Part shown: one piece after another, positions 1 through 16,046 of the stretch
Layout of the letters: every line of letters starts with the position of its first letter
How positions within the stretch are numbered: the stretch's first letter is position 1
Source: a candidate division WOR-3 bacterium
GTDB lineage: Bacteria; Hydrothermota; Tepidihabitantia; Tepidihabitantales; Tepidihabitantaceae
Assembly: GCA_039801225.1 (NCBI GenBank)
Contig: JBDRUH010000033.1
Span: forward strand, 1-16,046
Reading direction: 5' to 3'
DNA length: 16,046 bases
Notes under the pieces: generated by a model
What the model was told of the DNA's origin: nothing
What the model saw: only the letters and a program-made list of their open reading frames with translations
Database searches by the model: none
Made by a program: the position numbers and the translations under genes

Positions 1-305
1 GTTTTTTCACAGTCCTTTTAGACGCTCGCTCCCGACACATCCGCACCGAACAGGTTTCTATCGGCAGTCTTGATACCACCCTGGCTCATCCCCGAGAGGT
101 ATTTGATGCGGCAGTCCATGACCATGCACCAGCGATTGTTGTGGCACACAACCATCCTTCTGGAGACCCAACACCATCGGAAGAGGACATAAGGTTGACA
201 AAAAGACTTATTGAAGCGGGGAAGGTTTTAGGAATTAAACTTGTTGACCATATCATCATTGCTGGCGATAGGTTCTATAGTTTTCGCAATCACGGAATTT
301 TGTAA
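1..305 (+). CDS. radC: RadC family JAB/MPN-domain protein, 3' part (5' end outside the window)
   Basis: Manual translation of frame +3 (absent from the ORF track): ...VSIGSLDTTLAHPREVF...VVAHNHPSGDPTPSEEDIRLTKRLIEAGKVLGIKLVDHIII...GIL*, with TAA at 303-305. Contains the HNHPSG and DHII RadC motifs. Confidence 0.95.
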   Translation, partial: FFTVLLDARSRHIRTEQVSIGSLDTTLAHPREVFDAAVHDHAPAIVVAHNHPSGDPTPSEEDIRLTKRLIEAGKVLGIKLVDHIIIAGDRFYSFRNHGIL

Positions 306-764
306 ATGAAAGGCGGATATTATCTGCCAATTTATGCCTGTTTCATTATATTATTAGCGAACGGGACGGTCATTGCTGAATCGGAGGAAAGCAAGGTTAA
401 AGCCTTGTCCGACAAAGGCATTGGGAATAATTATTTTTTCATAAACAGTGATAAATTTGAATGCCAGGAGGCAGAAAATTCTCTCCCAGAAGGAACTGAG
501 CAACCTGACCGCTGGCTTGCCTGGGATAAGTTCTGGCATTTTTCCGCCAGTTTTGTTACTGTTGGTGCCGGATATCACCTCTGTGCCAATAGAATTGGAC
601 TGAAGCGCCCTTTAGCCACAGGTATTGCAATTGGCGGTACCTTGGGAATTGGCACCGGCAAGGAGCTCATTGACCGCTATGGGTGGCACCGCCGGTTTTC
701 CTGGAAAGACTTGGTTGCCAATATGCTCGGGATTGGTCTCGGTTATTTCGTTTTCATTTATTGA
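306..764 (+). CDS. Predicted membrane/exported protein, YfiM/DUF2279-like
   Basis: N-terminal hydrophobic signal. Motifs DKFWHFSAS, GxGKELxD and FSWKDLVANxLG match YfiM-like proteins. ATG directly follows the radC stop. Confidence 0.65.
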   Translation: MKGGYYLPIYACFIILLANGTVIAESEESKVKALSDKGIGNNYFFINSDKFECQEAENSLPEGTEQPDRWLAWDKFWHFSASFVTVGAGYHLCANRIGLKRPLATGIAIGGTLGIGTGKELIDRYGWHRRFSWKDLVANMLGIGLGYFVFIY

Positions 765-783
765 GCCATTTCTTAGAGAAAAA

Positions 784-811
784 TTGACTTTCTTATAATA
801 TATGTTAAATT
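784..811 (+). promoter_or_regulatory. Sigma70-type promoter, likely leaderless, for 818..1285
   Basis: TTGACT (784-789), N16, TAAATT (806-811), with an extended TG at 803-804. ATG follows 6 nt later and there is no SD. Confidence 0.65.
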
Positions 812-817
812 ATCTAA

Positions 818-1285
818 ATGTTATATTCCTACTCATTAGACCTGAGCCATTATATTGATACCGAGCGTATTTTCTATGGTGAAGGTCGCGGCGAAGTTGG
901 CATCGCCCTGCATATTCCATTAAAAAATTATGTGGCCGGCAGTGACCCTTCCACCGATTATGGTCTAATGGTCTCAATTACCAATCACCTGATCAATTTT
1001 CTCCTTTATGAACGGGCAAGGCGCGGGGCTGAGGCCTGGGATTATGACCCGGAAAGGGCGGCGGAAATTTATAATGTTTGCGGGGACAATATCGCCACCA
1101 GCGGAATTATTGTTTATGACAAAAACTACCCGGCCGGTCCCAAATTGCAGGTTTTTCTGGATAAGACATTCGGGCTTAATGAGGTGGCGATCAGATGGAA
1201 GGCGCAAATGGTTTTTGATGAGCGTCTGCTCGCCGATTACGAGGAATATTTAAAAAAGACCCTAAGAGAAACTGTCAAACGATAA
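818..1285 (+). CDS. Hypothetical soluble protein (155 aa)
   Basis: Fills the gap between genes, has a normal globular composition and its own promoter motif. No family recognised. Confidence 0.75.
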   Translation: MLYSYSLDLSHYIDTERIFYGEGRGEVGIALHIPLKNYVAGSDPSTDYGLMVSITNHLINFLLYERARRGAEAWDYDPERAAEIYNVCGDNIATSGIIVYDKNYPAGPKLQVFLDKTFGLNEVAIRWKAQMVFDERLLADYEEYLKKTLRETVKR

Positions 1286-1303
1286 CAGTTAAAGACCGGA
1301 CGG

Positions 1304-1705
1304 TTACACCCGATCAGGAAATTTTTCTTTTAGATAATCAACAATCTCTTGGGTGGGCGTTCCCGGTCCAAAAAGCCTGCCGCAGCCCATTTTATAAAGT
1401 TCTTCCATATCCTCTTTTGGAATGATACCACCACCAAACACCAGAATTTCGCCCGCCCCTTTTTCCTTTAACAGACGCATCACCTCGGGGAAAAGGGTCA
1501 TATGGGCTCCGGAGAGAATTGAAAGACCGACCGCGTCAACATCCTCCTGGATTGCCGCCTCGGCGATCATTTCTGGTGTCTGATGGAGTCCGGTGTAGAT
1601 AACCTCAAATCCGGCATCACGCAAAGCCCTGGCTACTACCTTTGCCCCCCGGTCATGTCCATCCAGACCGGGTTTGGCAATGAGAATTCGCAGTTTTTTA
1701 CCCAT
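1304..1705 (-). CDS. Cobalamin-binding small subunit of a split acyl-CoA mutase (IcmB-like)
   Basis: [13 protein letters not shown] (DxHxxG base-off/His-on motif), [10 protein letters not shown] and GGGIIP. AGGAGG RBS upstream. Confidence 0.95.
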
Positions 1706-1714
1706 TTTTACCTC

Positions 1715-3373
1715 CTAAAACATCGGTGGTTCAGCATAAGTTCCAAATACCTCTTTCATCGCGCCACATATTTCACCTAAGGTAGCATAAGCCCGAACCG
1801 CCTCAAGAATTGGATACATCACATTGTCCTTGCCGGCACAGGCATCTTTCAAGTCGCTGAGTGTCTGTTTCACCCGGGTATTATCGCGGCGCTGGCGTAA
1901 TTTTCTAAGTCTTTCCCACTGTTCTCTTTCCACCCGTTCGTCAATTTTCAAAATGGGAATTGCTAACTTTTCTCCTTCTAAGACATATTTATTGACCCCG
2001 ACCACGGTCCGTCTCTTTTCATCAACCGCTTTCTGATAGCGATATGCCGCTTCAGCAATCTCCCTCTGGGGAAAGCCTTGCTCAATCGCCTTGACCATTC
2101 CGCCCAGCGCATCAATCTTTTCAAAATACTCATACGCCTGTTTTTCCAGTTCATTGGTCAGGGCTTCAACATAATAAGAGCCACCTAACGGGTCAATCAC
2201 ATTGATGACACCGGTCTCCTCGGCGATAAGTTGTTGGGTGCGCAGGGCGATCAGCACCGCCTTTTCGGTAGGAAGCGCCCAAGTCTCGTCCATTGAATTG
2301 GTGTGAAGGCTCTGCGTTCCACCCAAAACTGCCGCTAATGCCTGAAAAGCGGTGCGGACAATGTTATTCTCCGGCTGCTGAGCGGTGAGGGTGCAACCGG
2401 CGGTCTGAGTATGGAAACGCAAAAGCCAGGATTCCGGTTTCTTGGCTTTGAAAGTCTGGCGCATCTCCCTTGCCCAGATGCGCCTAGCAGCACGAAACTT
2501 AGCAATTTCTTCAAAGAAGTCCAGATGGGAGTTGAAGAAAAAGGAAAGTCTCGGGGCAAACTCGTCAACATCCAGACCGGCTCTAATTCCCGCCTCAACA
2601 TAGGTCATACCATCCTTTAAGGTGAACGCCAGCTCTTGGGCGGCGGTTGAACCCGCCTCACGGATGTGGTAGCCTGAAATGGAAATGGTGTTCCATTTCG
2701 GGACATTCTTTGCGCCAAATGCCATAATATCGGTGATCACTCGGAGGCTGGGCTCGGGAGGAAAGAGCCAGGACTTCTGGGCAATATACTCTTTCAATAT
2801 GTCATTCTGAATCGTTCCGCGGAGTTTTTCGCTTGGCACCCCTTGCTTCTCCGCGGTAACGATGTAAAACGCCCAGAGTACCGCTGCCGGTCCGTTGATG
2901 GTCATAGAGGTGGAGACTTCGCCTAATGGAATTCCGTCAAAAAGGGTTTCCATATCCTCCAATGAGGAGATGGCCACGCCACATTTGCCCACTTCACCAT
3001 GGGAGAGCGGGTCGTCCGAATCCCGACCATAAAGCGTCGGGAAATCAAAAGCGACCGAAAGACCGGTCTCACCGTGTTCCAGGAGAAACTTGTAACGGGC
3101 ATTGGTGTCTTTAGCGGTGCCGAAACCGGAAAACTGGCGCATTGTCCAGAGTCTCCCGCGATACATATTGTGACGGATGCCGCGGGTGAATGGATACTCG
3201 CCGGGAAAACCCAGGTCACGAAGATAGTCAAAATCGGCTAAATCTACTGGCGTATAGAGGATATTAACTGGAATACCGGATACGGTTTGAAACCGCTCCG
3301 TTTCGCCCTTATTAACACAACTCTCCCAGCGTTTTTTCTCTTCTTCAATCCGATTAATTTCATCTTTTCCCAT
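1715..3373 (-). CDS. icmA: AdoCbl-dependent acyl-CoA mutase large subunit, probable isobutyryl-CoA mutase
   Basis: Motifs [55 protein letters not shown] and [11 protein letters not shown]81 and Q199 occupy the positions of MCM Y89 and R207. Family certain; substrate inferred. Confidence 0.85.
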
Positions 3374-3375
3374 TA

Positions 3376-4383
3376 CTACACCTCCCTATTATCTTGACCG
3401 GAAGCAAATCTATAGATTTGTCCTAACTCGGGCAATACCAGCGTAATAATTCTCTCTGCCGCCTGATAAGGGGTCAGTTTTTTGTCAACAACTTCCCTTG
3501 TCAGTTGGTCCAAAAGTTTTTCTATTTCCTTTTGTTGATAGATATTTTGCCGTAATCTTTCCACAATCAACCGTTCAATTTCGGTCTTAATCGCCTTGCG
3601 CCGGCGCTCTACTAAAATCGCCGAACTTGTCAAATAACGACGGTGTCGCTCAATTTCATCAAAGAGAGCGGTTACGCCATTCCCCTTGGTGGCAACAGTT
3701 TTGATAACCGGGGGCAGCCAGCCATCGTTTTTTGGTTTCAACTCTAACATCATTTCTATCTCAAGCACCATTCGGTCTGCCCCCTCGCGGTCGCTCTTAT
3801 TGACGCAGTATATTTCGCCAATCTCCATCAAACCTGCCTTAAGGGTCTGGATGGCATCGCCGGACTCGGGCACGAGAACGACGACGGTGGTATCCGCCGC
3901 TTCAGCGATATCCAACTCCATCTGTCCGACACCTACCGTTTCAATTAAGAGAAAATCCATGCCAAAGGCATCAAGGATGTCACAAACCTCTTTTGTCCGT
4001 CCAGCCAGTCCACCTAAACTTCCTCTGGTTGCCATTGAGCGAATAAAAACCTTTGGGTCGGTAAAAAGCGCCGACATCCGCACCCGGTCACCCAAGACCG
4101 CGCCACCAGAAAATGGCGAACTTGGGTCAACCGCAACGATACCTACGGTTTGACCTCTTTTCCGGCATTCCAATGCCAGTTTCTCTACGAGAGTGCTTTT
4201 ACCGGCACCGGGAGGACCAGTGATGCCAATCCGGTAAGCCCGACCGATGAGAGGATAAATTTCATTGAGAATCTGAACCGCGGCTTTAGAATTATTTTCA
4301 ATAAAAGAAATCAACTGACCACAGGCGCGGCGGTCACCGGCGCGAAACTTCTCTAAAAGTTTTTCAATAGTCAATTCCAGCAC
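3376..4383 (-). CDS. meaB: MeaB/ArgK-family GTPase, mutase chaperone
   Basis: [44 protein letters not shown]. The start is either GTG 4383 or TTG 4374; both overlap the upstream stop. Confidence 0.95.
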
Positions 4384-4873
4384 GATTTACGACACCTTTT
4401 TGAAACGGGTGTTTTATCTCTTTTATTTCACTGACCAAATCGGCCAATTTAATTATCTCTTCTTTTGCCCCTCTACCAGTAAAAATTAGTTCTATATCCT
4501 TTGGGCACTCTTGAGCAAGTTCTATCACATCTTTCAGAGGCAAAAGTCCGTAATCAACCGCCACATTAATTTCATCCAATATCACCATTTGATATTTGCC
4601 CGAGCGAATTGCCTCCCGGGCGAACTCCAGCCCCTTCTTTGCCAGTGTTAGGTCTTCTTGGCTGGGATTGCCCCTTTGGACAAAGGTCTTTTGCCCAAAC
4701 TGGTAAACTTCTAAGCCAGGGATGTCCTTTGCCGCTTTAATTTCGCCGTAATTACTATCACCTTTCATAAACTGAATGATTAAAACTCGCCAGTTATGCC
4801 CGGCGGCACGGAGCGCCAGACCGAATGCGGCGGTAGTCTTGCCCTTACCGTTGCCCGTGTAAACCTGCAGCAT
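4364..4873 (-). CDS. cobO: Cob(I)alamin adenosyltransferase, CobA/CobO/BtuR type
   Basis: VYTGNGKGKTTAAFG, IQFMKG, ILDEIN, FTGR, ADLVSE, KHPF and GIDY. Confidence 0.95.
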   Translation of the reverse strand: MLQVYTGNGKGKTTAAFGLALRAAGHNWRVLIIQFMKGDSNYGEIKAAKDIPGLEVYQFGQKTFVQRGNPSQEDLTLAKKGLEFAREAIRSGKYQMVILDEINVAVDYGLLPLKDVIELAQECPKDIELIFTGRGAKEEIIKLADLVSEIKEIKHPFQKGVVNRAGIDY

Positions 4874-4879
4874 TTTTTT

Positions 4880-4907
4880 AGTGTAAGAAAATGCGGTCTG
4901 AAGTCAA
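4880..4907 (-). promoter_or_regulatory. Sigma70-type promoter, likely leaderless, for the cobO-meaB-mutase operon
   Basis: Minus strand: TTGACT (4907-4902), N16, TACACT (4885-4880), AAAAAA, ATG (4873). No SD. Confidence 0.7.
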
Positions 4908-4922
4908 ATAATTGGCGGCGGG

Positions 4923-5429
4923 CTAACCAAGATCCGGGTTAATTTGCGGTCCGAGCCGGACTTTAAAGAGAAGTTGCATCAGGGCATTCCAGGTTTTGAA
5001 ATAGAACACCTCTCGGGCGATTGGTCCGGAACTTACGGATAAAGCAATCGGACCCTGGATGCCCTGAGACTCAATCATTATCCGCAAAATCATATGGGCA
5101 ACAGCCCAGCCAGTGACAAAGCCAAAAACAAAACCAAGAAAGCCGTCCAGCGACTCAAAGGACCATTGGGTCACACCGAAAAACCAACGGGCAAAGATAA
5201 AACCGAGCAAAGCAAACCCTATAAACAGGACAACAAGAGTGACCGAGGTTGTTATTCTTAATCCTCGGGCAAGGGCGGGGGCAAAGGAGGTTGCCGCAAC
5301 CGCTGAGGCAACAACGCCAAACATTTCTACGAGTGTCAGACCCATTCCCCCGGCCTTGGAAGTGCGAATTGTCTGGATTATTGCTACACCTAAGACAACC
5401 GCTAAGGAAAGCCAGTCAACCCAGGACAT
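4923..5429 (-). CDS. Membrane protein, CvpA-like
   Basis: About four TM segments. N-terminal WVDW and the later SLDGFLGFVFG resemble CvpA motifs. ATG 5429 overlaps the upstream TGA (TGATG); the ORF track starts at TTG 5432. Confidence 0.6.
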   Translation of the reverse strand: MSWVDWLSLAVVLGVAIIQTIRTSKAGGMGLTLVEMFGVVASAVAATSFAPALARGLRITTSVTLVVLFIGFALLGFIFARWFFGVTQWSFESLDGFLGFVFGFVTGWAVAHMILRIMIESQGIQGPIALSVSSGPIAREVFYFKTWNALMQLLFKVRLGPQINPDLG

Positions 5430-5725
5430 CAATCAATATCTAAATCTTCACCTGTTTCGCCCAGATCTTCCTCTTCACTTAGTCCCTCGTCCTCAAACTC
5501 ATCCAGTCCTTCTGCACCAAAATCCTCATCACCTGGTCCGAAATCCTCAAAGTCGCTTTCAGTTTTTGAGCCACCAATCACCGTAAACCTACCGAAAATC
5601 TGATGAACCTTTGTTCCGCCGCAATCCGGGCAGGTAGGATTCAAGCCGGCTTCCTTCTCCGCTAATGTGGCAACAATGTCAAACCTTTTACCACAATTCT
5701 CGCATTTATACTCATATACTGGCAT
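5429..5725 (-). CDS. FmdB-family zinc-ribbon protein with acidic C-terminal tail
   Basis: MPVYEYKCENCG...CPDCGG is the canonical FmdB pattern. GGAG RBS upstream. Confidence 0.9.
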   Translation of the reverse strand: MPVYEYKCENCGKRFDIVATLAEKEAGLNPTCPDCGGTKVHQIFGRFTVIGGSKTESDFEDFGPGDEDFGAEGLDEFEDEGLSEEEDLGETGEDLDID

Positions 5726-5742
5726 ATAACTACTCCATCATT

Positions 5743-5770
5743 ATTATAATAATAAAGTGTCTTTTGTCAA
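5743..5770 (-). promoter_or_regulatory. Consensus sigma70 promoter for the FmdB-like/CvpA-like genes
   Basis: Minus strand: TTGACA (5770-5765), N16, TATAAT (5748-5743). Confidence 0.8.
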
Positions 5771-5854
5771 TAGTTTGTATAATTCAAATCCCTGTGCGAC
5801 ATTTTGGTTTTCTCCAAGCCAGTCGGGGCAGTTTATGAATTGTTCTAAGGTAAT

Positions 5855-5900
5855 GAGATTGCTTCGCTCTATGCATTCACACAGCGACCGCTCACAATGA
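5855..5900 (-). repeat. REP-like/short interspersed element remnant (GTCATT...AATCTC type)
   Basis: Minus strand reads TCATTGTGAGCG...GAGCGAAGCAATCTC, resembling the widespread GTCATTGCGAG...GAAGCAATCT intergenic repeats. Confidence 0.55.
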
Positions 5901-5932
5901 GGGCGGGCGAATAGTAATGTGTATCCTCACAA

Positions 5933-5960
5933 CATCCGTCATCCGTCAGCCGTTACCCGC
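5933..5960. repeat. Heptamer tandem repeat spanning the rimI stop codon
   Basis: CATCCGT CATCCGT CAGCCGT TACCCGC. Confidence 0.55.
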
Positions 5961-6395
5961 CTGGTTTACCTTCATCTCCATAACTATCGCATCCTCACCG
6001 TTTTCGTAATATCCTTTACGAATGTAAGTTGGCTCAAATCCGAATCGGCGATAAAGGCGCTGGGCAGCGATGTTTGAAACCCGGACTTCAAGAAATATAT
6101 TTTCGGCACCTTCCCTTTTGGCAAAATCAAATACCTCCTTCAGCAACCTTGAACCGATGCCTTGGTTTCTCATCTCAGGCGCAACCGCAATGTTGGCAAT
6201 GTGCACCTCAATCCCACCCCAGGCGACAAGATAACCTACAACCTTATTCTCATTTTCAGCGACTATAGAGAAGGCATCCGGTCGGTGAAGGTCGGAGAGG
6301 AAGAAGGAGCGACGCCAGGGGTTGGGAAAACTTCTATTTTCTATTTCCATAATTCGGTCAAGGTCTTCCTCCCTCATCCGGCGGATGGTAACCAT
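5946..6395 (-). CDS. rimI: RimI-type GNAT N-acetyltransferase
   Basis: IENRSFPNPW, HIANIAVAPEMRNQGIG, LEVRVSNIAAQRLY, RKGYYENGEDAIVM. Confidence 0.92.
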   Translation of the reverse strand: MVTIRRMREEDLDRIMEIENRSFPNPWRRSFFLSDLHRPDAFSIVAENENKVVGYLVAWGGIEVHIANIAVAPEMRNQGIGSRLLKEVFDFAKREGAENIFLEVRVSNIAAQRLYRRFGFEPTYIRKGYYENGEDAIVMEMKVNQAGNG

Positions 6396-6396
6396 A

Positions 6397-9300
6397 CTAT
6401 TTAATTAGAACCGCTTTGGTAATTAAAACCGCCGATTGTGCTCCTTCAGGAAGAGAATGGAGGCGGATAAAATAAACACCGGGTGCAAGCGTCTTACCGT
6501 GGTTGTCTTTTCCATCCCAGATAGCGGAATGGGTGCCAGGGGGAAACTTGCCTTTAGCAAGAGTTCTGACTTCTCTTCCAGTGATATCAAAAACTGTAAG
6601 TTTGACCTCTGTTTTAATAGGCAGGCTGAAGTGGACTACTCCTCTGTCTCGTAGCGGGTTTTGATTAAGGTGTAAAGTTAGTTTTTTAATTCGCGCATCC
6701 ATTATTTCCTCATAGCCGGTGTAAGGCTCGCCACTAATAAACTTAATTGCCCGATTGGGAACGATTCCTGCGGCGCCACGATGGTAATTGGTATTATATA
6801 GATACTGAATCGCTATCGTTTTTGTCGGGTCTTGAGTTCCGACGGTGCTTGAGACGTAATAGTTGGCGCTGAGATACTGGAATATTATCTGATTATCACC
6901 GGTTGGCGTATTAACGGTTGTGTCATAGATGATGATTTCAAACTTGTCCCAATCACCAACGCCGGTGTAATAGACCGAATCCCACTCAACAATGAACCGG
7001 TGATTAAGACTGTCATAATAATACCAGACGCCACCTCCATAATATGGATAAAGGTCGTCCCAGTTTGCCGCAAGGAGTGGCGGCATATCAGAGTTGGGTA
7101 GAGTTGTGTTGTTGTAGGTGGTGTTGGTGGTGTAACCCGGGGCTAGCCAGCCGTTGGAGCAGACAGAAATCTGGTTGTAAATCTCACCATAGAAGATAAA
7201 AGGTCCGAAACTGAGCGGCAGGTTCACCTGTTTTGTCTGGTCGTCACTCAAGGTGAGTCTTGTGCCTAAATTTCTGATTTCCACCCAGGAAAACTCAGGA
7301 TGCTGATTATAAAGGGTATCAACGTCATCATAAGCCCAATAGACCGGTGGCTGGGCATTGTCCGGAATCGGGTCAATAGTTCTGATTTCGCCAACGACAA
7401 TGTTAAAGACTAAGGTTTTGCTATACCCGTCAAGAGCACTAATTTTGAGGGTGCAAGGTATCGGGGTCTCGGGCGGTATTGTGCTTTGGGTATGAAGGGT
7501 AAATGGGTCTGAACTGTTTTTCTTAATAGAGTCTTTAGGGATAAAGCCAAATTGAGCCAGTGAGTCGGTAACCTGGAGCCGGTTATCGCCGGAACGCAGC
7601 TTTCCGGAAACCGAGTAGCCATTACCTAAACCGATGTTCTTTAATGTTACAAATAACTGGGCGCTTTCCCCCGGGTCAAGTTTGCCATCACCATTGCCCC
7701 CTGGTGGCGGGTCATTAATCGTATTGGTAACATAAACCATAACCGGCGTTCCAACATAAAGGGTAATGTTTGAGTTCCAGACCGAATCAAGTTCATCCCG
7801 GCATTCAAGAGAAAACTTCAACTGGTAGCCATTGGTGCAGGAAGGGGCGACATAAAATCCGAACCCGTCCGGACCGGTAAAAGCCGAGTCGCCTGCCGGA
7901 ATATCACCAAATGCCTTTGCCGAGTCGGTAATTGTTATCTTCGGGTCTGAGGTGCGGAGTTTACCGGTAACCGAGTTTGCGACCATCATACCCCAGTTCT
8001 TTACCCAGACAGGAAGTTCTATTGTCTCACCAGGGTTGATGATACCGTCACTGTTGCCAAGAGAGTCGTTGATGAGTGAGCGCCGATATAAGACATAACC
8101 GGAGTTGGGGGCAATTGTAATCGCTGAGCCGAGATAAGGTCTGAGGTTTCTACCGGTAACGGTAACATATAGCGAATCACCCGGCTGGGTTGTCTCAAGG
8201 TTAAAGGTAACTTCACCTGAAGGGTTGGTGTGAGCAACATAAAATACGGTGGTGTCCTGTTCCGACATCACACAAACTTGAGCATTTTCAACTGGGGTGT
8301 TATTAGCGGTTACCGTAACCGGGAATTGAAAAGAGCCGATGGGCACAACCGCCGGATGTTCTACGGTAAGTTCCTTTGGGGTCTGGGACCAGATATTCAG
8401 TTCTGGCTCACCGAAGTTATTAAACATATATATCTCCTCTTCGGAAATGTCATCAGGAAGGGGATAGGCTTGAAGCATAAAAAGTTTTCCCGCCTGGGTG
8501 CACTGGGCAAATGTATAAAAGAGGCTGTCAACATAGGAGATAAATGTTCCGGCAGCCAGCGAGTCGTTATAACCGGAGTAACTCACCTCCGAGGCACCAA
8601 AATAGCCACACCCACCCTTCTCCTCACCCGCCTTTAGCCAGGCTTCGGCATGGCAATCCTCCGTCTCATCAAAGTTGCCGGAAAGGCAGGTTGGGGCAAT
8701 AACCATTGGTAGCATTCTACCGTTGTTTAAGGCAGAGACATTGGAGTTGGTCCAGGAAGGGTCAACATTTGCCCAGGCAGCCACATCACCGTGGCCGCGA
8801 TAGAGCATCCAGGCTCGGCCTAAATTTAAAGAGTCGGTAAGCGCCTGAGCGGTATTCAGACCCCAGCGCTCAAAAAGGGTGTCAAACTGGGTAAATGGGT
8901 TGTTCATAACATAGTTTCTGATTCTTATCACCACGGTCCAGAAACGACCGCTTCCTTCATAACCGGCAAGGGCACAAACCTTTTTAAACCATTCCGTATT
9001 GTCCAGATAGGGTTCCTTCTCATACTTATAAAGTTTATTGAGCATCACCTGTGCCTCGGTCAAACTTCGGGCGCAGACCCGGGCAATCATCAGGTCGGCT
9101 AAGATGTCATTTCCCTCCTGTAAAGAGTAGTAAAGGTCCGAGGCATCAGTATTTCCTGGCCAGCGGTTACAGCGGAGATATTCCGGGGCATCGCCAATAA
9201 GAAGGACATAGTCGGGCGGATAGGTCCAATTGTTATAGGCATTATGAATATAGTTGTAGATGAGCGCCGTGTCATTGCCGCCAATTTCGGAAAGGGTTAC

Positions 9301-10104
9301 AACCTCGGTGTGCCAGCCCTTGCGTCTTTTCCACCGGGCAAATGGCTCAACCGCACTATAGAAATTGTCGTTGACAATAATTAGATAACAGCCATTCTCT
9401 GCCTTCGGAGGCGAGAGGAAGCGGTAATTGGCGATAAAGGATTTGTAAAGAGGCTCAAAGGCAGGGGAGATTCTATGCCGGCGTCTTGTTTTAACATTGA
9501 GGGTTGAATATCCTTCATAGCGGAGTTCAACTTTGAGTTTTTTTGCCACCCTAAGTTCACCCGAAACCGGATTGAAACGCACCGGCTGAAGCACCAGTTG
9601 GACCAGACGAAAGTCACGCATAATCATCGGCGCACTCATACGCACAGATAACTCAGGATAGAACTCATTAGTAGAATAACGCTTCTCATCAATTACAAAC
9701 TCCTGAAACCTTTGTTCTTCCGGTAATGGCGGCTGGGCAGGATAGACATTATACCCCTTGAGAGTAATAACATCCTCCTCTAACACCTTTATCTGAACAT
9801 CTTTGTCATCAGGAATGGCGATGAGTCGGGCAAGAACTGGCAGTTGTGGTGATCCGACTTCGGTGAGAACTCCACCGCCAGAAATTCCGAGTTGCAGGGT
9901 TTGAAAAACCTTTTCCTGAACAGCAATATCTTCTACATAAAGTCCAAAAAGGTTGAGTTCAACCACAGTTCTTTGGGAGTTTGAACTCAGGACTTTGAAA
10001 TCTAACGGTGTTTCTGGACTACCGGGAGTAAAAGGCGCCCAGCGTCCTTCACCGATTTGCAGATAAAGCAGCGCAAATAAAACAACTACAACGATTTTCT
10101 TCAC
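6397..10104 (-). CDS. Secreted C25 (gingipain-like) cysteine peptidase with propeptide, Ig-like repeats and a C-terminal FlgD-Ig/T9SS-like sorting domain
   Basis: GTG start with AAGGAGG; signal peptide; propeptide motif GSPQLP; YVLLIGD; catalytic YRGHG (H438) and APTCLSG (C473); C-terminal VFDITGREVRTL...WDGKD...GVYFIRL. Confidence 0.9.
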   Translation of the reverse strand: MKKIVVVVLFALLYLQIGEGRWAPFTPGSPETPLDFKVLSSNSQRTVVELNLFGLYVEDIAVQEKVFQTLQLGISGGGVLTEVGSPQLPVLARLIAIPDDKDVQIKVLEEDVITLKGYNVYPAQPPLPEEQRFQEFVIDEKRYSTNEFYPELSVRMSAPMIMRDFRLVQLVLQPVRFNPVSGELRVAKKLKVELRYEGYSTLNVKTRRRHRISPAFEPLYKSFIANYRFLSPPKAENGCYLIIVNDNFYSAVEPFARWKRRKGWHTEVVTLSEIGGNDTALIYNYIHNAYNNWTYPPDYVLLIGDAPEYLRCNRWPGNTDASDLYYSLQEGNDILADLMIARVCARSLTEAQVMLNKLYKYEKEPYLDNTEWFKKVCALAGYEGSGRFWTVVIRIRNYVMNNPFTQFDTLFERWGLNTAQALTDSLNLGRAWMLYRGHGDVAAWANVDPSWTNSNVSALNNGRMLPMVIAPTCLSGNFDETEDCHAEAWLKAGEEKGGCGYFGASEVSYSGYNDSLAAGTFISYVDSLFYTFAQCTQAGKLFMLQAYPLPDDISEEEIYMFNNFGEPELNIWSQTPKELTVEHPAVVPIGSFQFPVTVTANNTPVENAQVCVMSEQDTTVFYVAHTNPSGEVTFNLETTQPGDSLYVTVTGRNLRPYLGSAITIAPNSGYVLYRRSLINDSLGNSDGIINPGETIELPVWVKNWGMMVANSVTGKLRTSDPKITITDSAKAFGDIPAGDSAFTGPDGFGFYVAPSCTNGYQLKFSLECRDELDSVWNSNITLYVGTPVMVYVTNTINDPPPGGNGDGKLDPGESAQLFVTLKNIGLGNGYSVSGKLRSGDNRLQVTDSLAQFGFIPKDSIKKNSSDPFTLHTQSTIPPETPIPCTLKISALDGYSKTLVFNIVVGEIRTIDPIPDNAQPPVYWAYDDVDTLYNQHPEFSWVEIRNLGTRLTLSDDQTKQVNLPLSFGPFIFYGEIYNQISVCSNGWLAPGYTTNTTYNNTTLPNSDMPPLLAANWDDLYPYYGGGVWYYYDSLNHRFIVEWDSVYYTGVGDWDKFEIIIYDTTVNTPTGDNQIIFQYLSANYYVSSTVGTQDPTKTIAIQYLYNTNYHRGAAGIVPNRAIKFISGEPYTGYEEIMDARIKKLTLHLNQNPLRDRGVVHFSLPIKTEVKLTVFDITGREVRTLAKGKFPPGTHSAIWDGKDNHGKTLAPGVYFIRLHSLPEGAQSAVLITKAVLIK

Positions 10105-10133
10105 TTTGCCTCCTTAATTAGTCTTCGAGCCTA

Positions 10134-10161
10134 AGATTAGGCTATTACCCGTTTAAGTCAA
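10134..10161 (-). promoter_or_regulatory. Sigma70-type promoter for the C25 peptidase and rimI
   Basis: Minus strand: TTGACT (10161-10156), N16, TAATCT (10139-10134). The -10 lies within the palindrome at 10128-10143. Confidence 0.7.
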
Positions 10162-10184
10162 TAAAAGCGTGAGCCGAGAAGGTC

Positions 10185-10213
10185 TTGCCAGTATCTTTAT
10201 TCTCCGTTAAGAT
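10185..10213 (+). promoter_or_regulatory. Sigma70-type promoter, likely leaderless, for the DUF554 gene
   Basis: TTGCCA (10185-10190), N17, TAAGAT (10208-10213). ATG at 10219, no SD. Confidence 0.55.
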
Positions 10214-10218
10214 TTTTG

Positions 10219-10896
10219 ATGATTGGCACGATAGTTAATACCGCTACGGTTATTGTCGGGAGTCTGGTCGGCGTTTTTCTTCACAGCCGTTTCCCAGAAA
10301 GATTGACAAAAATAATCTTTCAGGCAATCGGTCTTTTTACCCTGTTTTTAGGATTTGCTATGGCGCTCAAGACCCAGAAGATGCTGATTCTTATTTTCTC
10401 AATTGTCGGCGGTGCACTCATCGGCGAACTGATAGATATTGACCGGCATCTCAGCCGATTCGGTGAATGGCTGAAGGCAAAATTACGGATTAGCGGGAAG
10501 CATTTTACCGAAGGGTTGGTAACCGCATTTTTGGTCTTCTGTATGGGTTCAATGACGGTGCTTGGCGCGGTGGAGGAAGGATTGGGAAAGACACCAAACC
10601 TTTATTTTGCCAAGTCGCTCCTTGATGGTTTTGCTTCAGTTGCCCTGGCCGCCGGTCTGGGGCTCGGCGTGCTCTTTTCGGCAATTCCGCTCTTTATTTA
10701 CCAGGCGGGATTGACCCTATTGGTCCGCCTGCTCAACACCCTTTTGACGGAAAGGATTGCCGCCGAGATGACCGCGGTTGGCGGGCTCATCCTTATCGGT
10801 TTGGGTATAAACCTCTTGGAAATCAAACGGCTCAAGGTGCTCAATATGTTGCCAGCGCTCCTTGTCGCCATTCTATTAACGCTTATCTTCAGTTAA
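10219..10896 (+). CDS. DUF554 (YqgA-like) multi-pass membrane protein
   Basis: MIGTIVNTATVIVGSLVG, FCMGSMTVLGA, AKSLLDG, GVLFSAIP...YQ and NMLPAL. ATG 10219 preferred over TTG 10216. Confidence 0.88.
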   Translation: MIGTIVNTATVIVGSLVGVFLHSRFPERLTKIIFQAIGLFTLFLGFAMALKTQKMLILIFSIVGGALIGELIDIDRHLSRFGEWLKAKLRISGKHFTEGLVTAFLVFCMGSMTVLGAVEEGLGKTPNLYFAKSLLDGFASVALAAGLGLGVLFSAIPLFIYQAGLTLLVRLLNTLLTERIAAEMTAVGGLILIGLGINLLEIKRLKVLNMLPALLVAILLTLIFS

Positions 10897-10913
10897 CAAT
10901 TTCTTAGGTAGTA

Positions 10914-10941
10914 TTGACTTTATTTGCCCTTTTTCTAAACT
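10914..10941 (+). promoter_or_regulatory. Sigma70-type promoter for lepB
   Basis: TTGACT (10914-10919), N16, TAAACT (10936-10941). ATG follows 10 nt later, no SD. Confidence 0.65.
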
Positions 10942-10951
10942 GGTCTCTATT

Positions 10952-11773
10952 ATGAGCGGATTTACTCGCGGGATAAAACACTTTATCCGGGAATGGACAC
11001 CGGTGATTATCGCCGTCCTTTTGATTCGTTCATTTCTGGTTGAGGCGTTTATGGTGCCAACCGGTTCAATGGAGGATACCATTGCTATCGGAGACTTTAT
11101 GCTGGTCAACAAGTTTACCTACGGGGTCAAACTTCCCTTTACCGACAGGGTTCTCATACCTATCTCAACTCCCAAGCGAGGGGATATTGTTGTCTTTCGG
11201 TTTCCGGTTGACCCGGATATGCCGACAGATTCACTCTACTTCAATCGTTATGTCCGGATATTTCCCCGCTGGCTACCGCTTTTGCCGGTCTATTGGGACC
11301 GAAAGGCAAATTTCTTTACCTGGTATATTCCCCGCAACTTTATCAAGCGGTGCGTGGCGGTTGCGGGCGATACGGTTGAGGTGCGGAATAAAGAACTATA
11401 TGTTAATGGTATCAAGGAGAATGCGCCCTATGTTGTTCACAAATTCTATTACACCATTCCCGGTCTGCCTTTAGAACTCAACGCCGATTTCCAGAAACTT
11501 TGGGAGACTCGCCGGTTTTACCGTTCTGACCTTTCTCCTTATGTCCGCGACAATTTTGGTCCGGTGGTTGTTCCACCGGGGCACATTTTTGCGATGGGCG
11601 ACAATCGGGATAACTCCGAAGACTGCCGGTTCTGGGGTCCGTTAGAATTGCGTCATATCAAAGGTAAGCCTTTAGTGCTCTACTTCTCCTCCAGCGCCGC
11701 GCCCAATATCGCCCGTATCATCCTTTCGCCCTGGGCAATCCGATTTAACCGGATTGGTCGACTGGTGCGTTAG
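10952..11773 (+). CDS. lepB: Signal peptidase I
   Basis: One N-terminal TM; VPTGSMEDT (catalytic Ser), RGDIVVF, FIKRCVA (catalytic Lys) and MGDNRDNSEDCRFWG. Confidence 0.96.
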   Translation: MSGFTRGIKHFIREWTPVIIAVLLIRSFLVEAFMVPTGSMEDTIAIGDFMLVNKFTYGVKLPFTDRVLIPISTPKRGDIVVFRFPVDPDMPTDSLYFNRYVRIFPRWLPLLPVYWDRKANFFTWYIPRNFIKRCVAVAGDTVEVRNKELYVNGIKENAPYVVHKFYYTIPGLPLELNADFQKLWETRRFYRSDLSPYVRDNFGPVVVPPGHIFAMGDNRDNSEDCRFWGPLELRHIKGKPLVLYFSSSAAPNIARIILSPWAIRFNRIGRLVR

Positions 11774-11785
11774 AAGAAGAAGAAT

Positions 11786-11823
11786 AGGTTAAGGTTTAGG
11801 TTTACTTTCCTTAGCCTTAACCT
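11786..11823. terminator. Hairpin built from hexamer repeats between convergent lepB and the pgsA-like gene; possible bidirectional terminator
   Basis: AGGTTAAGGTTTAGG, loop TTTACTTT, CCTTAGCCTTAACCT. The outer 9 bp pair perfectly. There is no immediately adjacent poly-U on +. Confidence 0.55.
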
Positions 11824-11840
11824 CAGCTTCAACCTACCAT

Positions 11841-12461
11841 TTAACCCTGTTCCCCGGGCAAATGGAATTTTACCATTATCCGGAGGAAGAGAAAAGAATA
11901 GTTTATGAAGGAGACAACGATTAAAACCAAAACGGTCCAATCGGCAAAGGGTTTGAAGCGGTAGATCACCGGTATAATTCGGCGCAAAAAACCTGGGTTA
12001 GAGTCCAGCGTCAGGGTATAAAAGAGAATCAAAAGGGCAAAGGCACAGCCGGTAATTTTACCGACAACATCAGAAGAAACCAGCGACCCGCGCATCTTTA
12101 ACAGATAGGCGCTGCCGGCAAGGATTAAAATGTCGCGGAGCACTACCGCGCCAACAATATAAAGCGGTAAATTGCTGATGTATACCAAGGAGATTAAAAC
12201 CAGCGCCACCCAGATTTTATCAACCAGATGGTCAAGGATTCGTCCGGTGTCCGAGACTTGATTCAGCCGACGTGCCAGATAACCGTCAAGGGCATCGGTG
12301 GACCAGGAGAAAAGCATTGCGCCAATTGCCGGTAACGGTTGGCGTCGGAAAAGAAAGAAAAGCACCACCGGAAGGAGAAAGAGCCGGGATATGCTCAAGA
12401 TATTGGGAATGGTAAGAATCTTGGTACCGTTCTGAGTTCTGACTTGGGATTGCTGATTCAC
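11841..12461 (-). CDS. CDP-alcohol phosphatidyltransferase (PgsA-like)
   Basis: TIPNILSISR and TDALDGYLARRLNQVSDTGRILDHLVDK (family signature). The probable start is GTG 12461, overlapping the nadK TAG; the ORF track extends to 12482. Confidence 0.9.
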   Translation of the reverse strand: MNQQSQVRTQNGTKILTIPNILSISRLFLLPVVLFFLFRRQPLPAIGAMLFSWSTDALDGYLARRLNQVSDTGRILDHLVDKIWVALVLISLVYISNLPLYIVGAVVLRDILILAGSAYLLKMRGSLVSSDVVGKITGCAFALLILFYTLTLDSNPGFLRRIIPVIYRFKPFADWTVLVLIVVSFINYSFLFLRIMVKFHLPGEQG

Positions 12462-13327
12462 TACCGTTGACCGCCGGACCACTGCAATTTTTCTCTAAGA
12501 ATTTCAAAATAACTCTTTCCCTTCGGTACCACCAAGCGGACACAAAACTCCGCTCGGGAGATGTCTATCCTGGTGCCGGCTGTCACCCGCCATCTCCTTT
12601 GACCATCCAAGTTCAAAACCGCTGACTGGGATTTATCAGTAAGTTCCAATGAAACTGTTTCTTCTCCAGGAAGAACGACCGGGCGGGCAGCCAGGGCGTG
12701 GGGGGCAAGCGGGGTCAGAATAATCGCCGACATTGTTGGATATACTACCGGACCACCCGCGGCCAGCGAGTAGGCGGTTGAGCCGGTTGGAGTTGCTACA
12801 ACCACACCGTCACCAACAAATTTATTTACAAAATTTTTTCCGCACCAGACAACAACCTCAATTACCCTATTGGAATTTCCCATATTCAAGGCACAATCAT
12901 TTAAGGCATAACCCAAGTGGGCTGATGGACGACGGCTTTCGGTTTTCGGCTCTCGGCTTTGCCAGCAGGAAAGAACCATTCGTTTTTCCTCGGAATGCTC
13001 GCCGCGGGCAAAATTTTCTATACCCGCACGCGCCTCCTGGATAGAAAATTCGGTGAGAAAACCAAGACCGCCAAGATTGACACCCATTAACGGCTTTTCA
13101 CTCTTTCCTACCAGTCGAGCGGCACGGAGGAGTGTTCCATCGCCACCCAGCGCAACCACCAGGTCAGCCTGTAGATGGGTAAGCCGGACTGGATTGTCAA
13201 TAATATCTTTGGGTGGCTCATCCACAAATCCCGGCTGATAACCCTTTTTCTTCAGCCAGCGATAAAAAGGCGGTACAAACCTTCGGGCAACTGTTTTGTT
13301 CCAGTTTACCACCAAGGCAATCTTCAT
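12461..13327 (-). CDS. nadK: NAD(+) kinase
   Basis: LGGDGTLL, GVNLGGLGFL, ALND, DGVVVATPTGSTAYSLAAGGP and LDGQ. Confidence 0.96.
   Translation of the reverse strand: MKIALVVNWNKTVARRFVPPFYRWLKKKGYQPGFVDEPPKDIIDNPVRLTHLQADLVVALGGDGTLLRAARLVGKSEKPLMGVNLGGLGFLTEFSIQEARAGIENFARGEHSEEKRMVLSCWQSREPKTESRRPSAHLGYALNDCALNMGNSNRVIEVVVWCGKNFVNKFVGDGVVVATPTGSTAYSLAAGGPVVYPTMSAIILTPLAPHALAARPVVLPGEETVSLELTDKSQSAVLNLDGQRRWRVTAGTRIDISRAEFCVRLVVPKGKSYFEILREKLQWSGGQR
12919..12960. repeat. Degenerate heptamer tract inside nadK
   Basis: GGGCTGA TGGACGA CGGCTTT CGGTTTT CGGCTCT CGGCTTT; encodes part of QSREPKTESRRPSAH. Confidence 0.6.
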
Positions 13328-13332
13328 TATAG

Positions 13333-14181
13333 TTAACTCCTAAGTGCCGATTGGTTTTTGATAAAGGCATAGCGCACCTTACCATAGAGGTCGCGTTCAA
13401 TTTCCGCACTCGGTATCAGTTCTTTTACAAACTCACCCTGAGTGGAATCAATCTCCAGTGCCATTAACCCATTAGGTGCCAAAAGCGAAGGTCCGTCTTT
13501 TAAAAGCATCTTAAGAACTTTAACACCCTTTTCTTTTCCATCAAGGGCAATTTGTGGTTCGTAGTGCCGCACCCTTTTCGGTAAATTTTTTAGCCGTTCC
13601 TTAGGAATATAGGGAGGGTTGGAAATCAGTAGGTCTAACCCGTTAGCCGGCAGCACCGATTTTAATTCGGTGAGGCTGCCGGCTCGGAAAAGTATTATCC
13701 GGTCAAAAAGGTTATAGCGGTAAATGTTTTTCTCTGCGACCATTAACGCTTTCCTTGATATGTCAACCGCAAAGATTTTTGCCTTGGGGAAAATACGTGC
13801 CAGGGCAATGGCGATACAGCCGGAACCGGTCCCGTAGTCTAAGACAACCTCAGGAGAGTGTACCCTTGCCGCTGTCCGCAAAACCAGTTCTTCGGTCTCG
13901 GGACGGGGAATAAAAACCCTTTCATCCACATAGAGGTCAAGGTCAAGAAAAGGCGCCGAGTGCACCAGATACTGCACCGGTTCGCCCAATTCTGCCCGCC
14001 TTGCCAGTTCCAAGAATTTTCGGGCATCTTCCCGGCTGATTTCCTCTTTAGAGAGGTAAAGTTCGTGCCTTTTTAAATTAGTAATTTTCATTAAAAGGAA
14101 CTCCGCCTCTTCAAGGGGAATTTTTGGGTTTTGGCTTTTGGGTTTTGGCTTTTGGGTTTTGGCTTTTAGCGCTTGTCTCAT
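13333..14181 (-). CDS. prmC: Release factor glutamine methyltransferase
   Basis: [51 protein letters not shown] overlap with prfA. Confidence 0.95.
14122..14170. repeat. Perfect tandem repeat (TTTTGGGTTTTGGC)x3 plus TTTTAGC in the 5' end of prmC
   Basis: Read directly from the sequence; encodes [15 protein letters not shown]. Confidence 0.95.
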
Positions 14182-15248
14182 AGGTTTGCCTCTGCCTGTT
14201 CCAGCGCTTCAAAAAGGGGGTCAATTTCACCATCCAAAACCGTCTCCAGGTTGTATAAAGAGAAGCCAATTCGGTGGTCGGTTACCCGATTCTGGGGAAA
14301 ATTATAGGTGCGAATTTTCTCGCTGCGTTCACCGGTGCCGATCTGTTTCCGCCGGGTGGCGGTAGTTCTTGCCTCCTCCTCTTTTCGGCGGATTTCACCC
14401 AAACGGGCTAAAAGCACCTTCATCGCCTTTGCCCGATTGCGCGCCTGAGACCGTTCATCCTGACACACCACAGTAATACCGGTAGGCAGATGGGTCAACC
14501 GAACCGCCGAACTTACCTTGTTGACATTCTGACCACCATGCCCGCCCGCCCGGAATGTCTCCATTTTAATCTCTTCCGGTTTTACTTTTAATTCCAACTC
14601 CTCTTGTTCCGGTAAAACCGCTACAGTAACAGTTGATGTGTGAATTCTACCTGAAGCCTCGGTTACCGGAACCCTTTGAACGCGGTGCACTCCACTTTCA
14701 AACCGGAAAAAGCGATATGGTGAAGAACCTTCTACAGAAAAAATGATTTCCTTAAAACCTCCCAAGTCACTCGGTCGTGAGGAAAGCACCTCTATTTGCA
14801 GTTTATGTCGTTCGGCAAATTTAGAATACATTCGGAACAGGTCAGCAGCAAATAACGCCGCCTCTTCACCACCGGCAGCGGCTCTAATCTCAACAATGCA
14901 CCCCTTGCGCCACTCAGGCGGTTGAGGCATCATCATTTCCTTTAACTCCTGACGCAGGGTGTTGAGCCTTTTCTCTATCCGCGTCAGTTCTGTCTGGGCC
15001 AATTCCTTCAACTCCGGCTCCAGAGCACCTCGGGCTAACTCGCGGGTATCCTGCAACTCTTCTTCCAGCCGGCGATACTCCTCAATTCGGGATAAAACCT
15101 CGGACACCTCCTTATGCTCTCTAACTACTGTCTGGTATTGGGAAGGAGTCGCCATTATTGCCGGGTCGGTAAGGAGCCGCTCCAGTTCCACCCGCCGCCG
15201 CTGCCACTCTTCAAACCTCTGGGAGATCTCTTCAAACGAAATTGCCAT
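14178..15248 (-). CDS. prfA: Peptide chain release factor 1
   Basis: [23 protein letters not shown] (the PxT motif of RF1), GGQNVNK and [20 protein letters not shown]. Confidence 0.98.
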
Positions 15249-15336
15249 ATCTAACCTATAATATCACTTAAGGAAAGTAAACCGGGTGGGATTCCTCTAA
15301 AGGTATTGACTGGGTCATATTCATCAACACATTTTA

Positions 15337-15364
15337 ATTATCCAGCAATTTTCCTGATTGTCAA
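15337..15364 (-). promoter_or_regulatory. Candidate promoter for the prfA operon
   Basis: Minus strand: TTGACA (15364-15359), N16, GATAAT (15342-15337). Confidence 0.55.
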
Positions 15365-15413
15365 TGTTCGTCTTTTTAGATTTAAACTTTTCCATCGGTA
15401 AAATTTTTTGTCT

Positions 15414-15689
15414 TCGTTTGAAATGCTGTTGTTACCTTTAATCTTGTTTGGGTTATTAAAATTGTTTAAAGTTGGTTTTTTACCTTTCCCTTTAAATCGG
15501 CTCTTCAACCGCTTTAAAGCCTGCTTTTTAGTTTTGAAACAAGAGTTAAAACAAAAATCGGACCAAAGACCCTTGCTAAACCACTTTTTACAACCGTTTC
15601 TTTAGTTGATTTTCCCTTTGAACTTACCTCCGAGTTTACTAGCAAACTTAACACCAAGCCCAAAACCTATTCAACAAAGGGTTTTACCA
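15414..15689. repeat. Degenerate tandem array with 12-bp period (23 units), apparently non-coding
   Basis: Cut into 12-mers from 15414: position 9 is A in 19/23 units, position 7 is a pyrimidine in 20/23, and positions 7-9 are TTA in 10 units and CAA in 4. Confidence 0.7.
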
Positions 15690-15735
15690 CCCTAGTGCTG
15701 GAGTGGACAGCCCCCCAGATAAACCGGTCTTCAAA

Positions 15736-15761
15736 TTAAGTTATTTAATTACGATACTTAA
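15736..15761. other. Inverted repeat TTAAGT-N14-ACTTAA
   Basis: TTAAGTtatttaattacgatACTTAA, read directly. Confidence 0.5.
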
Positions 15762-15810
15762 CTCAATTATAACCATCAGAATTTTGTTTATGTATAAATA
15801 AACTGTATTA

Positions 15811-15882
15811 ATTCAAAAGTCAGAATTCAAATTGCAATAGTTAAAACGATTGGAGATTTGGCTTTTGATTTCCCTGTTTTGC
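15811..15882. repeat. Degenerate heptamer tracts in opposing orientation
   Basis: ATTCAAA AGTCAGA ATTCAAA TTGCAAT AGTTAAA, then GATTTGG CTTTTGA TTTCCCT GTTTTGC. Confidence 0.45.
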
Positions 15883-15883
15883 T

Positions 15884-15966
15884 CTTCACCCCGTCATTTC
15901 CAACGAGCCTACGGCGAGTGGATGAATCCCACCGCTTGGGGCGGGCTCTGAAGGTGAAGGAATCTC
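15884..15966 (+). repeat. REP-like structured element (GTCATT...AATCTC type)
   Basis: GTCATT (15893) to GGAATCTC (15966). Nested complementary pairs CTTCACC/GGTGAAG and GAGCC/GGCTC, plus inner CCCACCGCTTGGGGCGGG. Confidence 0.5.
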
Positions 15967-16046
15967 TGGCAATGAGGTCAATAAGGTCTCTTTTAAGCCT
16001 TTGTGGTTGATGTTATGGGCAAATGGTGATGGAATTTTTACCTAAT

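Follow-up and report, generated by a model that had tools for sequence, protein, structure and literature searches.

What is the strictly spaced 12-nt pattern that lies upstream of prfA in a candidate division WOR-3 bacterium of the Hydrothermota, and is its spacing maintained for a reason? The window, i.e. the whole stretch of 16,046 nt analysed here (assembly GCA_039801225.1, contig JBDRUH010000033.1, positions 1 to 16,046), had been described in a sequence-only reading that took positions 15414-15689 for a single cryptic, non-coding array of 23 dodecamers and offered three identities for it: a phased protein-polymerisation platform, a repeat RNA or micro-guide array, or a decayed tetrapeptide-repeat gene. 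The neighbouring gene and its promoter are as follows.

14178..15248, minus strand: prfA, encoding peptide chain release factor 1 with its PCRF and RF-1 domains; prmC and NAD kinase come next
15337..15364, minus strand: sigma-70-like promoter outside the repeat, TTGACA-16-GATAAT (11/12), between the element and prfA

Period-12 signal upstream of prfA

The periodicity claimed for 15414-15689 is real. Lag-12 autocorrelation was 0.462 against 0.276 +/- 0.029 in shuffled sequence (z 6.5; 0/2000 dinucleotide-preserving shuffles as high), and period-12 Fourier power reached z 6.8, again with 0/2000 shuffles as high at that period and with 5/2000 reaching the same power at any tested period. The peak thus fell at 12, as the sequence-only reading had expected of such an analysis, with a weak signal at 10.5 (z 2.6) and with harmonics 6, 4 and 3 likewise high. 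By excess lag-12 identity, the tract is one of the three highest-ranking of 24,800 windows that cover the genome. The example 12-mers and counts given earlier were reproduced when counting from 15414 (A at unit position 9 in 19/23 units, a pyrimidine at position 7 in 20/23); counting from 15426 gives 18/22 and 20/22, the unit at 15414 contributing one A at position 9 and no pyrimidine at position 7. It is the limits of the tract that needed revision: the periodic part is ~15426-15691, inside a larger unit of ~15398-15815.

The impression that neighbouring units are alike in local blocks was not borne out, as unit similarity in the consensus of the family described below is flat with distance (0.44, 0.39, 0.41, 0.42 and 0.43 at lags 12 to 60), and the similarity of adjacent units outside the core is not significant (permutation p 0.14). 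With no decay of similarity with distance in the family consensus, blocks of unit-wise duplication are unsupported; the tail is a long-range phased motif and not what recent local duplications have left behind. Tandem Repeats Finder at score 30 returned nothing at the tract, which points to a phased motif and not to a classical tandem repeat, the latter being recognised by head-to-tail copies at least ~70% alike whose number varies between alleles. The view that the array is neither CRISPR nor an ordinary VNTR can be upheld, with 12-nt units only ~42% alike and no array detected by that program. CRISPR arrays combine near-identical direct repeats of ~23-50 nt with unique spacers of similar length; here the 12-nt unit has no repeat/spacer division. 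A VNTR or minisatellite was set aside in view of a unit identity of 0.41-0.44, a unit number that differs by at most one or two among copies, and a locus that is identical in other samples.

Searches for known RNA features gave no tRNA or tmRNA match at the tract, no Rfam match at gathering score in the window, nothing relevant in Rfam for 15250-16046 with E values allowed up to 5, and nothing for the loci of ten relatives with E values up to 1. As a candidate DnaA-box, -10-like or Shine-Dalgarno-like site, the unit would have only a partial likeness to the consensus. Elsewhere in the window, the 5' end of prmC contains at 14122-14167 a tandem repeat of a heptamer or 14-mer (TTTTGGC x 6.6, score 71-92) that encodes a Lys/Pro/Gln-rich N-terminal stretch of the prmC product.

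A dispersed intergenic repeat with head and tail

The array is not singular, as had been supposed, and forms the variable tail of a dispersed intergenic repeat of ~420 bp with about 25 copies. With 15300-15780 as query, BLAST returned 27 matches of 70-89% identity from the organism's own genome (1.5 Mb, 72 contigs; G000); 26 copies were alignable (BLAST and MAFFT), and a covariance model of the head has 28 matches in the same genome. Nine copies lie at contig ends. The composite copies, i.e. those with head and tail, are paralogues and counts over them are non-independent, with C58/C7 and two C5 copies being near-duplicates. In the window the parts of the element, all on the minus strand, are these:

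15398..15425, minus strand: distal end of the element, where similarity within one copy subfamily stops in the alignment
15426..15691, minus strand: tail of ~22 phased dodecamers, delimited by unit profile, phase test and the presence of 12-nt indels only
15664..15815, minus strand: head, a conserved module of ~150 nt, captured by a covariance model
15680..15691, minus strand: junction dodecamer, GGTGGTAAAACC, which varies least of all blocks in the element
15698..15718, minus strand: G+C hairpin of the head, CUGGGG-N8-CUCCAG with one G.U; pairs 104-107 with 115-118 are G-C and G-U only
15736..15761, minus strand: A+T hairpin of the head, TTAAGT-N14-ACTTAA, with 7 pairs, 14-20 of 20 copies unchanged
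15786..15803, minus strand: palindrome GTKTAT-N6-ATAMAC, at the 5' edge of the head, with a co-varying third base pair

The element thus spans ~15398-15815, with a head of ~150 nt and ~22 phased dodecamers. Mean column identity of the head (15664-15815) is 88% among 20 copies, and the tails are ~70-75% identical, in an alignment that is gapless apart from blocks of exactly 12 nt. The lag-12 signal is kept in 24/24 tails tested (z 3.0-7.2, median 4.3). On the minus strand, which is purine-rich, the tail unit reads roughly WKKTAARAWBRR, corresponding to YYRWTYTTAMMW on the plus strand. The junction dodecamer coincides with invariant alignment columns 125-134, and a scan with its motif found 20 element copies, all of them followed by a tail with lag-12 z of 2.8-6.8.

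At the other end of the tail, no convincing terminator (hairpin and T-run) was found. Copies on C2, C12, C34, C39 and C4 have there a direct repeat of the junction motif, in diverged form, that may represent either a terminal unit or a target duplication. By manual count, this direct copy stands 3 nt off the 12-nt register. The distal end of the window copy has diverged, and 15397-15411 is an inverted match to 15674-15688 (15 nt, 80%). None of 16 inverted pairs joins the two termini of the window copy, which therefore lacks the terminal inverted repeats by which a MITE would be recognised.

Further information on the locus came from hot-spring metagenomes (6 runs from 2 studies; reads of 4 were examined, as contigs without starts, ends or strand). 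The locus was found unchanged in other metagenome samples, and no empty site lacking the element was seen in 4 other metagenome runs. Head depth in other runs was ~45 times that of the prfA flank, as a collapsed repeat would give. An exact 21-nt head motif had 0 matches in genome contigs and 0 in metagenome contigs, collections from which the records of this genome itself may be absent. Scans for a strictly phased motif (GGTRA or GTRAW in no fewer than 6/10 units) gave no match and, as they missed the element itself as well, are uninformative.

The G+C hairpin of the head is homologous to a GGGG(G)-loop-CCCC(C) hairpin that relatives carry ahead of a T-run. The third pair of the palindrome is GC in 16, UA in 3 and broken in 1 of 20 own copies, and in relatives AU in 7, UA in 3, GC in 3, GU in 1 and broken in 6 (n = 20). 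Covariation in the head is thin, with double changes in 1/17 predicted pairs (G000), and in the heads of relatives the palindrome is the sole predicted pairing. The head-to-tail sense folds more stably than its complement in 19/20 G000 copies (-30.8 vs -24.8 kcal/mol) and in 12/20 copies of relatives, and the G.U pairs of the head are confined to the head-to-tail strand. Substitutions in the tail show no strand asymmetry once normalised by base counts.

BLAST with the element in 40 relatives gave 0 matches, and it was only with the covariance model of the head that G046 and G047, two genomes from a different genus of the same family, were reached, with 18 matches apiece. The flank at 15690-15761, suggested earlier as a handle for searching related genomes, does lie within the conserved head. 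The spread of the family is patchy: 2/43 other genomes of the taxonomic family, or 3/66 genomes of the order with the own genome included. In the relatives the element is ~135 nt long and tail-less, ending in the G+C hairpin and then a short T-run, at which similarity stops. The own genome also has two or three tail-less diverged heads, with C6:15132-15265 and C42:2880-3021 being of the relatives' type.

The first downstream ORF is co-oriented with the element in 15/16 G046 loci that have one (ORFs overlapping the element ignored), and 13 of these 15 ORFs carry Pfam domains, among them gyrA, SmpB, POR gamma, RnfC and Mur ligase, in a scan of 20 of the 29 listed ORFs. Upstream genes in G046 have the same orientation in 10 cases and the opposite in 7. 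In the own genome 23 composites have a called neighbour, to which 15 are co-oriented and 8 convergent, a mixture equally compatible with a selfish element and with a regulator. The link to prfA is incidental, as other copies flank unrelated genes in all orientations. Several loci of relatives have a canonical TTGACx-17-TATAAT promoter between element and gene (read from the alignment), as prfA has its sigma-70-like promoter, and hence the element lies upstream of promoters and does not itself act as the promoter.

Other short repeats occur around the element. Directly past the head, 15814-15898 is a short dispersed repeat with a longer block common to C12 and C46 and with 43-92-nt matches on C25, C39, C7, C11, C31, C9 and C15. 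REP-like G+C hairpin repeats at 15860-15950 have short matches on at least 8 other contigs, and repeats of the same kind flank many element copies. The last 114 bases of the contig (15933-16046) are 98% identical to C13:1916-2029, and the contig therefore probably breaks in a repeat.

Register, coding capacity and origin of the tail

The tail holds its 12-nt register with unusual strictness. In an alignment-free test, three 84-nt segments per tail were scored against the unit profile in all 12 phases, and phase 0 was best in 71/72 segments from 24 copies, the exception being a non-homologous distal part; the profile was built from the same copies, and the margins are large. In the 19 full copies, the tail (215 nt) has accumulated 751 substitution copy-sites and 4 indel runs at 3 sites, each of exactly 12 nt. 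Over the same copies the head (113 nt) has 165 substitution copy-sites and 8 indel runs at 4 sites, each of 1 nt. At the head's ratio, ~36 copy-events (~18 events) of 1 nt would be expected in the tail and 0 were observed. The tail is full of A and T runs, and such runs are prone to 1-nt slippage. Frequent substitutions combined with the absence of phase-breaking indels, and with only 12-nt indels occurring, argue that register to the head is under purifying selection. The four whole-unit indels fit a constraint modulo 12 or modulo 3 alike. Conservation of the motif over background in the tail is modest: core A/T columns are better conserved than non-core A/T columns (0.79 vs 0.68-0.72; permutation p 0.018 and 0.050), and conservation is lower at those core columns where the consensus deviates from the motif. 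We consider it highly probable that the element is a non-coding modular repeat with a tail of reiterated dodecamers held under a register constraint.

The coding capacity of the tail was analyzed in three candidate frames, namely L (plus strand, Leu-rich), K (minus strand, Lys/Gly-rich) and S (minus strand), of which L and K share their wobble position. The earlier statement that the tract is non-coding holds, as no frame stays open throughout the family, and the plus-frame stop at 15603-15605 and the minus-frame TAA stops are where they had been placed. Over 24 copies of ~70 codons there are 42 stops in L, 88 in K and 29 in S, with 254 and 271 in the two TAA-bearing frames. A column shuffle, which retains column composition and breaks codon context, predicts 41.1, 84.3 and 30.7 for L, K and S, indicating that stops are not avoided in these frames. 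Intact copies number 3 in L (3.8 expected) and 6 in S (5.7 expected; column shuffle, n = 24) and range over the candidate frames from 0 to 7 of 24, i.e. chance level. Across frames pN/pS is 0.64 (L and K) to 0.95, and mean conservation by codon phase (0.678, 0.684 and 0.654) has no wobble pattern. At the TTA core, conservation is equal over the three bases (0.74, 0.69 and 0.71), so that this core is a motif at the nucleotide level rather than a codon for Leu or Lys.

Protein searches gave a similar picture. The intact 84-aa L ORF had no match among 5.8 billion clusters, an L-frame profile from 16 copies had none among 1.84 billion representatives, the K-frame profile had no protein match, and the sole match of the S-frame profile was a 57-aa ORF that belongs to the C39 copy of the element. 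When the K translation was searched in six frames against 44 family genomes, own copies alone were recovered, each with 1-9 stops. The proposed decayed tetrapeptide-repeat gene is therefore unsupported by stops, pN/pS, wobble or protein searches. The sequence-only reading had staked itself on two outcomes: the period-12 signal did exceed its shuffles, and no intact homologous tetrapeptide-repeat ORF was found. A protein-coding tetrapeptide-repeat gene was rejected for its lack of a stop-free frame across copies, of purifying selection at the protein level and of outside homologues, and a type I toxin-antitoxin locus for its lack of a conserved intact ORF and a conserved start codon.

A broader coding explanation would be a decayed or fast-evolving small-protein gene in frame L, S or K, either a tetrapeptide repeat or a hydrophobic peptide resembling a type I toxin, with the head RNA convergent to it. 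It can draw on a family consensus that is open in L over all 22 units (0 consensus stops), on the open copies in L (3/24) and S (6/24), on the pN/pS of 0.64 in L and K, on tail indels that preserve the frame, and on the S-frame ORF of one copy being annotated as a 57-aa gene (P0001) in a public assembly. We nevertheless regard it as very improbable, given that stops and intact-copy numbers equal the column-shuffle expectation, that there is neither a wobble pattern nor a convincing start codon, and that the L and K profiles are matchless and the S profile matches the element's own copy only.

As to how such a tail comes about, tails of other unit sequence are informative. Two further tracts directly follow a G+C hairpin with a junction motif. 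At locus L053 of G046, the terminal dodecamer of the head is followed by 11-18 units whose consensus is similar to that dodecamer, with lag-12 identity 0.53 over 132 nt (z 5.6, 0/1000); the tract, at ~265-480 of this locus (G046:C8), consists of G/T-rich dodecamers in the head-sense orientation. The G046 loci L054 and L065 have weaker versions of this type of tail. The second tract, C55:7333-7540 of the own genome, opens with a motif 1/10 bases off the composite junction and continues with ~17 G-rich units (z 4.5); its start coincides with the stop codon of a membrane-protein gene, shortly past a G+C hairpin and the junction-like motif, its end lies at a strong 9-bp hairpin, and it has stops in all frames. 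In the composites, too, the A-rich tail is similar to its own junction dodecamer, the first unit fitting the unit profile at 9/12 positions. Three tails with three unit sequences, each matching its own junction, argue that a tail forms when the junction dodecamer is reiterated. On this evidence the dodecamers of the tail are degenerate reiterations of that unit, one composite having then dispersed in this genome, and we propose that the junction dodecamer is the seed or nucleation unit of the tail.

Known systems, rival explanations and a possible mechanism

Several known systems share part of this architecture. BOX elements of Streptococcus pneumoniae, whose boxB module is 45 nt long, are a case in point, with no sequence relation to the present element: both have a terminal module, an internal tandem array and many dispersed copies. 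In the portion of Croucher et al. (2011, PMC3049150) drawn on here, BOX comprises boxA, tandem boxB modules (0-8 times) and boxC, with terminal inverted repeats. The same portion depicts a small interspersed intergenic repeat with a conserved end module and a variable tandem array, in ~100 or fewer copies within one species group, as here, and an orientation-dependent influence on neighbouring genes, which for the present element would be an extrapolation (PMC3049150). In contrast to BOX, the module here is 12 nt long, the ~22 units are ~42% alike and phase-locked to the head, and the window copy has no terminal inverted repeats.

The tail also has the pitch of iteron and centromere arrays, i.e. 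fixed direct repeats of ~12 bp. In the excerpted text of a preprint (10.1101/2022.04.29.490116), TubR binds seven 12-bp tubC repeats and StbA binds 9-bp repeats with 2-bp spacers, StbA arrays being present also at several promoters of one replicon. Arrays of the TubR-tubC, StbA and ParR-parC kind share with the tail direct repeats at a fixed 11-12-bp pitch, as far as the sources drawn on go; filament loading belongs to them and would be attributed to the present element by analogy. Such arrays have 2-10 well-conserved units, on plasmids and beside the gene of their binder, whereas here there are ~22 degenerate units in each of ~25 chromosomal copies, with a hairpin head and with different neighbours at every copy.

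MITE and REP/REPIN elements are likewise multi-copy, non-coding and intergenic, with hairpins and a patchy spread. They differ from the present element, with its internal phased array, tail copies ~25-30% diverged, no transposase found in association with it and, in the window copy, no terminal inverted repeats. Mycobacterial MIRU are short tandem units dispersed at many intergenic loci, as here, but their units of 40-100 bp are well conserved and vary in number between strains, whereas the 12-nt units here are degenerate, near-fixed in number and fused to a head. The GGA arrays of CsrB/RsmZ and the triplet repeats bound by TRAP are spaced irregularly or by 5-6 nt, come from one or a few gene copies and have known binders; the likeness lies in many weak copies of a short motif on unstructured RNA and in a multimeric binder, which for the tail would be putative. 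Mobile or re-used promoters, as far as the part of PMC3575422 considered here describes them, are also repeated blocks upstream of unrelated genes and co-oriented with them (compare 15/16 in G046), but here sigma-70-type promoters separate the element from the gene.

Overall, the best explanation in our judgement is a non-coding modular repeat whose register-selected tail serves as a phase-locked binding track, to which we assign a probability of roughly 0.45. Its main rival is a purely selfish MITE- or BOX-like modular repeat with a degenerate 12-nt minisatellite tail devoid of phase-dependent function, in which the clean register would reflect young copies or an indel spectrum dominated by slippage of whole units. 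The patchy spread (3/66 genomes of the order, 0/40 relatives by BLAST), copies in every orientation context, the repeat-like placement of 9 copies at contig ends, a locus unchanged in other samples with no empty site seen, and the fact that 4/4 tail indels are whole units, as from slippage, all suit such an element. We still hold it to be unlikely, as the head has 8 1-nt indel runs per 165 substitutions and the tail none per 751, in spite of slippage-prone A/T runs; moreover, units only ~41-44% alike are a poor slippage substrate, and the ends of the window copy have no terminal inverted repeats.

Two further explanations look to RNA. The plus-strand tail, as a U/C-rich, G-poor and unstructured transcript with pyrimidines spaced by roughly 12 nt, may be a Rho-site-like part of a portable termination or insulation module that stops read-through from neighbours or from the head. 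Plus-strand composition (C ~0.21, G ~0.13, C/G ~1.7), the 8/23 composites that abut the 3' end of a convergent gene and the termination of tail-less heads in a hairpin and T-run speak for it. A rut site in RhoTermPredict is, in the part of PMC6407284 used here, a 78-nt window with C/G >1 and a C every 11-13 nt. The bases that are periodic here are T7, T8 and A9, with C shared among five unit positions at ~0.3 each; a rut site would be richer in C, and Rho binding tolerates variable spacing, leaving the strict register unexplained. All this makes the termination module improbable. Least probable of all is a structured non-coding RNA with a folding tail, or a known RNA family. The strand preference of the head hairpins would suit it, but neither the window nor the loci of ten relatives match Rfam at the cut-offs given above, the consensus fold of the head reaches only -9 kcal/mol, and the tail repeats are direct and not inverted, purine-rich on one strand and with little self-complementarity.

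For the binding-track mechanism itself, which names a putative binder, our support is tentative and falls short of even odds. Of the three identities offered by the sequence-only reading, the phased protein-polymerisation platform, with its putative polymerising protein, fits the conservation of register best. A factor would recognise the head and the junction dodecamer, which would serve for nucleation, and further protomers would then be added in 12-nt steps, each on a weak copy of the junction motif. The bound form may be the head-to-tail transcript (prfA strand) in preference to duplex DNA, by roughly 60:40, since the fold is strand-specific and the sense strand rich in purines. As the element lies mostly just upstream of promoters, the likely output would be local control or insulation of transcription, or else the propagation of the element itself. 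It is also conceivable, if rather doubtful, that the element represents a novel type of bacterial nucleoprotein structure, that the hairpin head nucleates a polymerising protein advancing in exact 12-nt steps and that the ~25 tracks together form a genome-wide regulatory or organising system in which register rather than sequence is selected.

In our best reading, the element is a new lineage-specific modular interspersed repeat whose unusual property is its phase-locked dodecamer array. For annotation this means that the tract has no specific tie to prfA and should not be annotated as a gene. Non-coding DNA that tolerates ~28% substitution and yet no phase-breaking indel is rare, and hints at a reader with a fixed 12-nt footprint. 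If there is no binder, the family would still be a clean case of a terminal motif that was reiterated into a long array and then dispersed. If a binder exists, the tail would be a natural, sequence-tolerant polymerisation track, and this uncultivated thermophile lineage would possess an added layer of promoter-proximal control.
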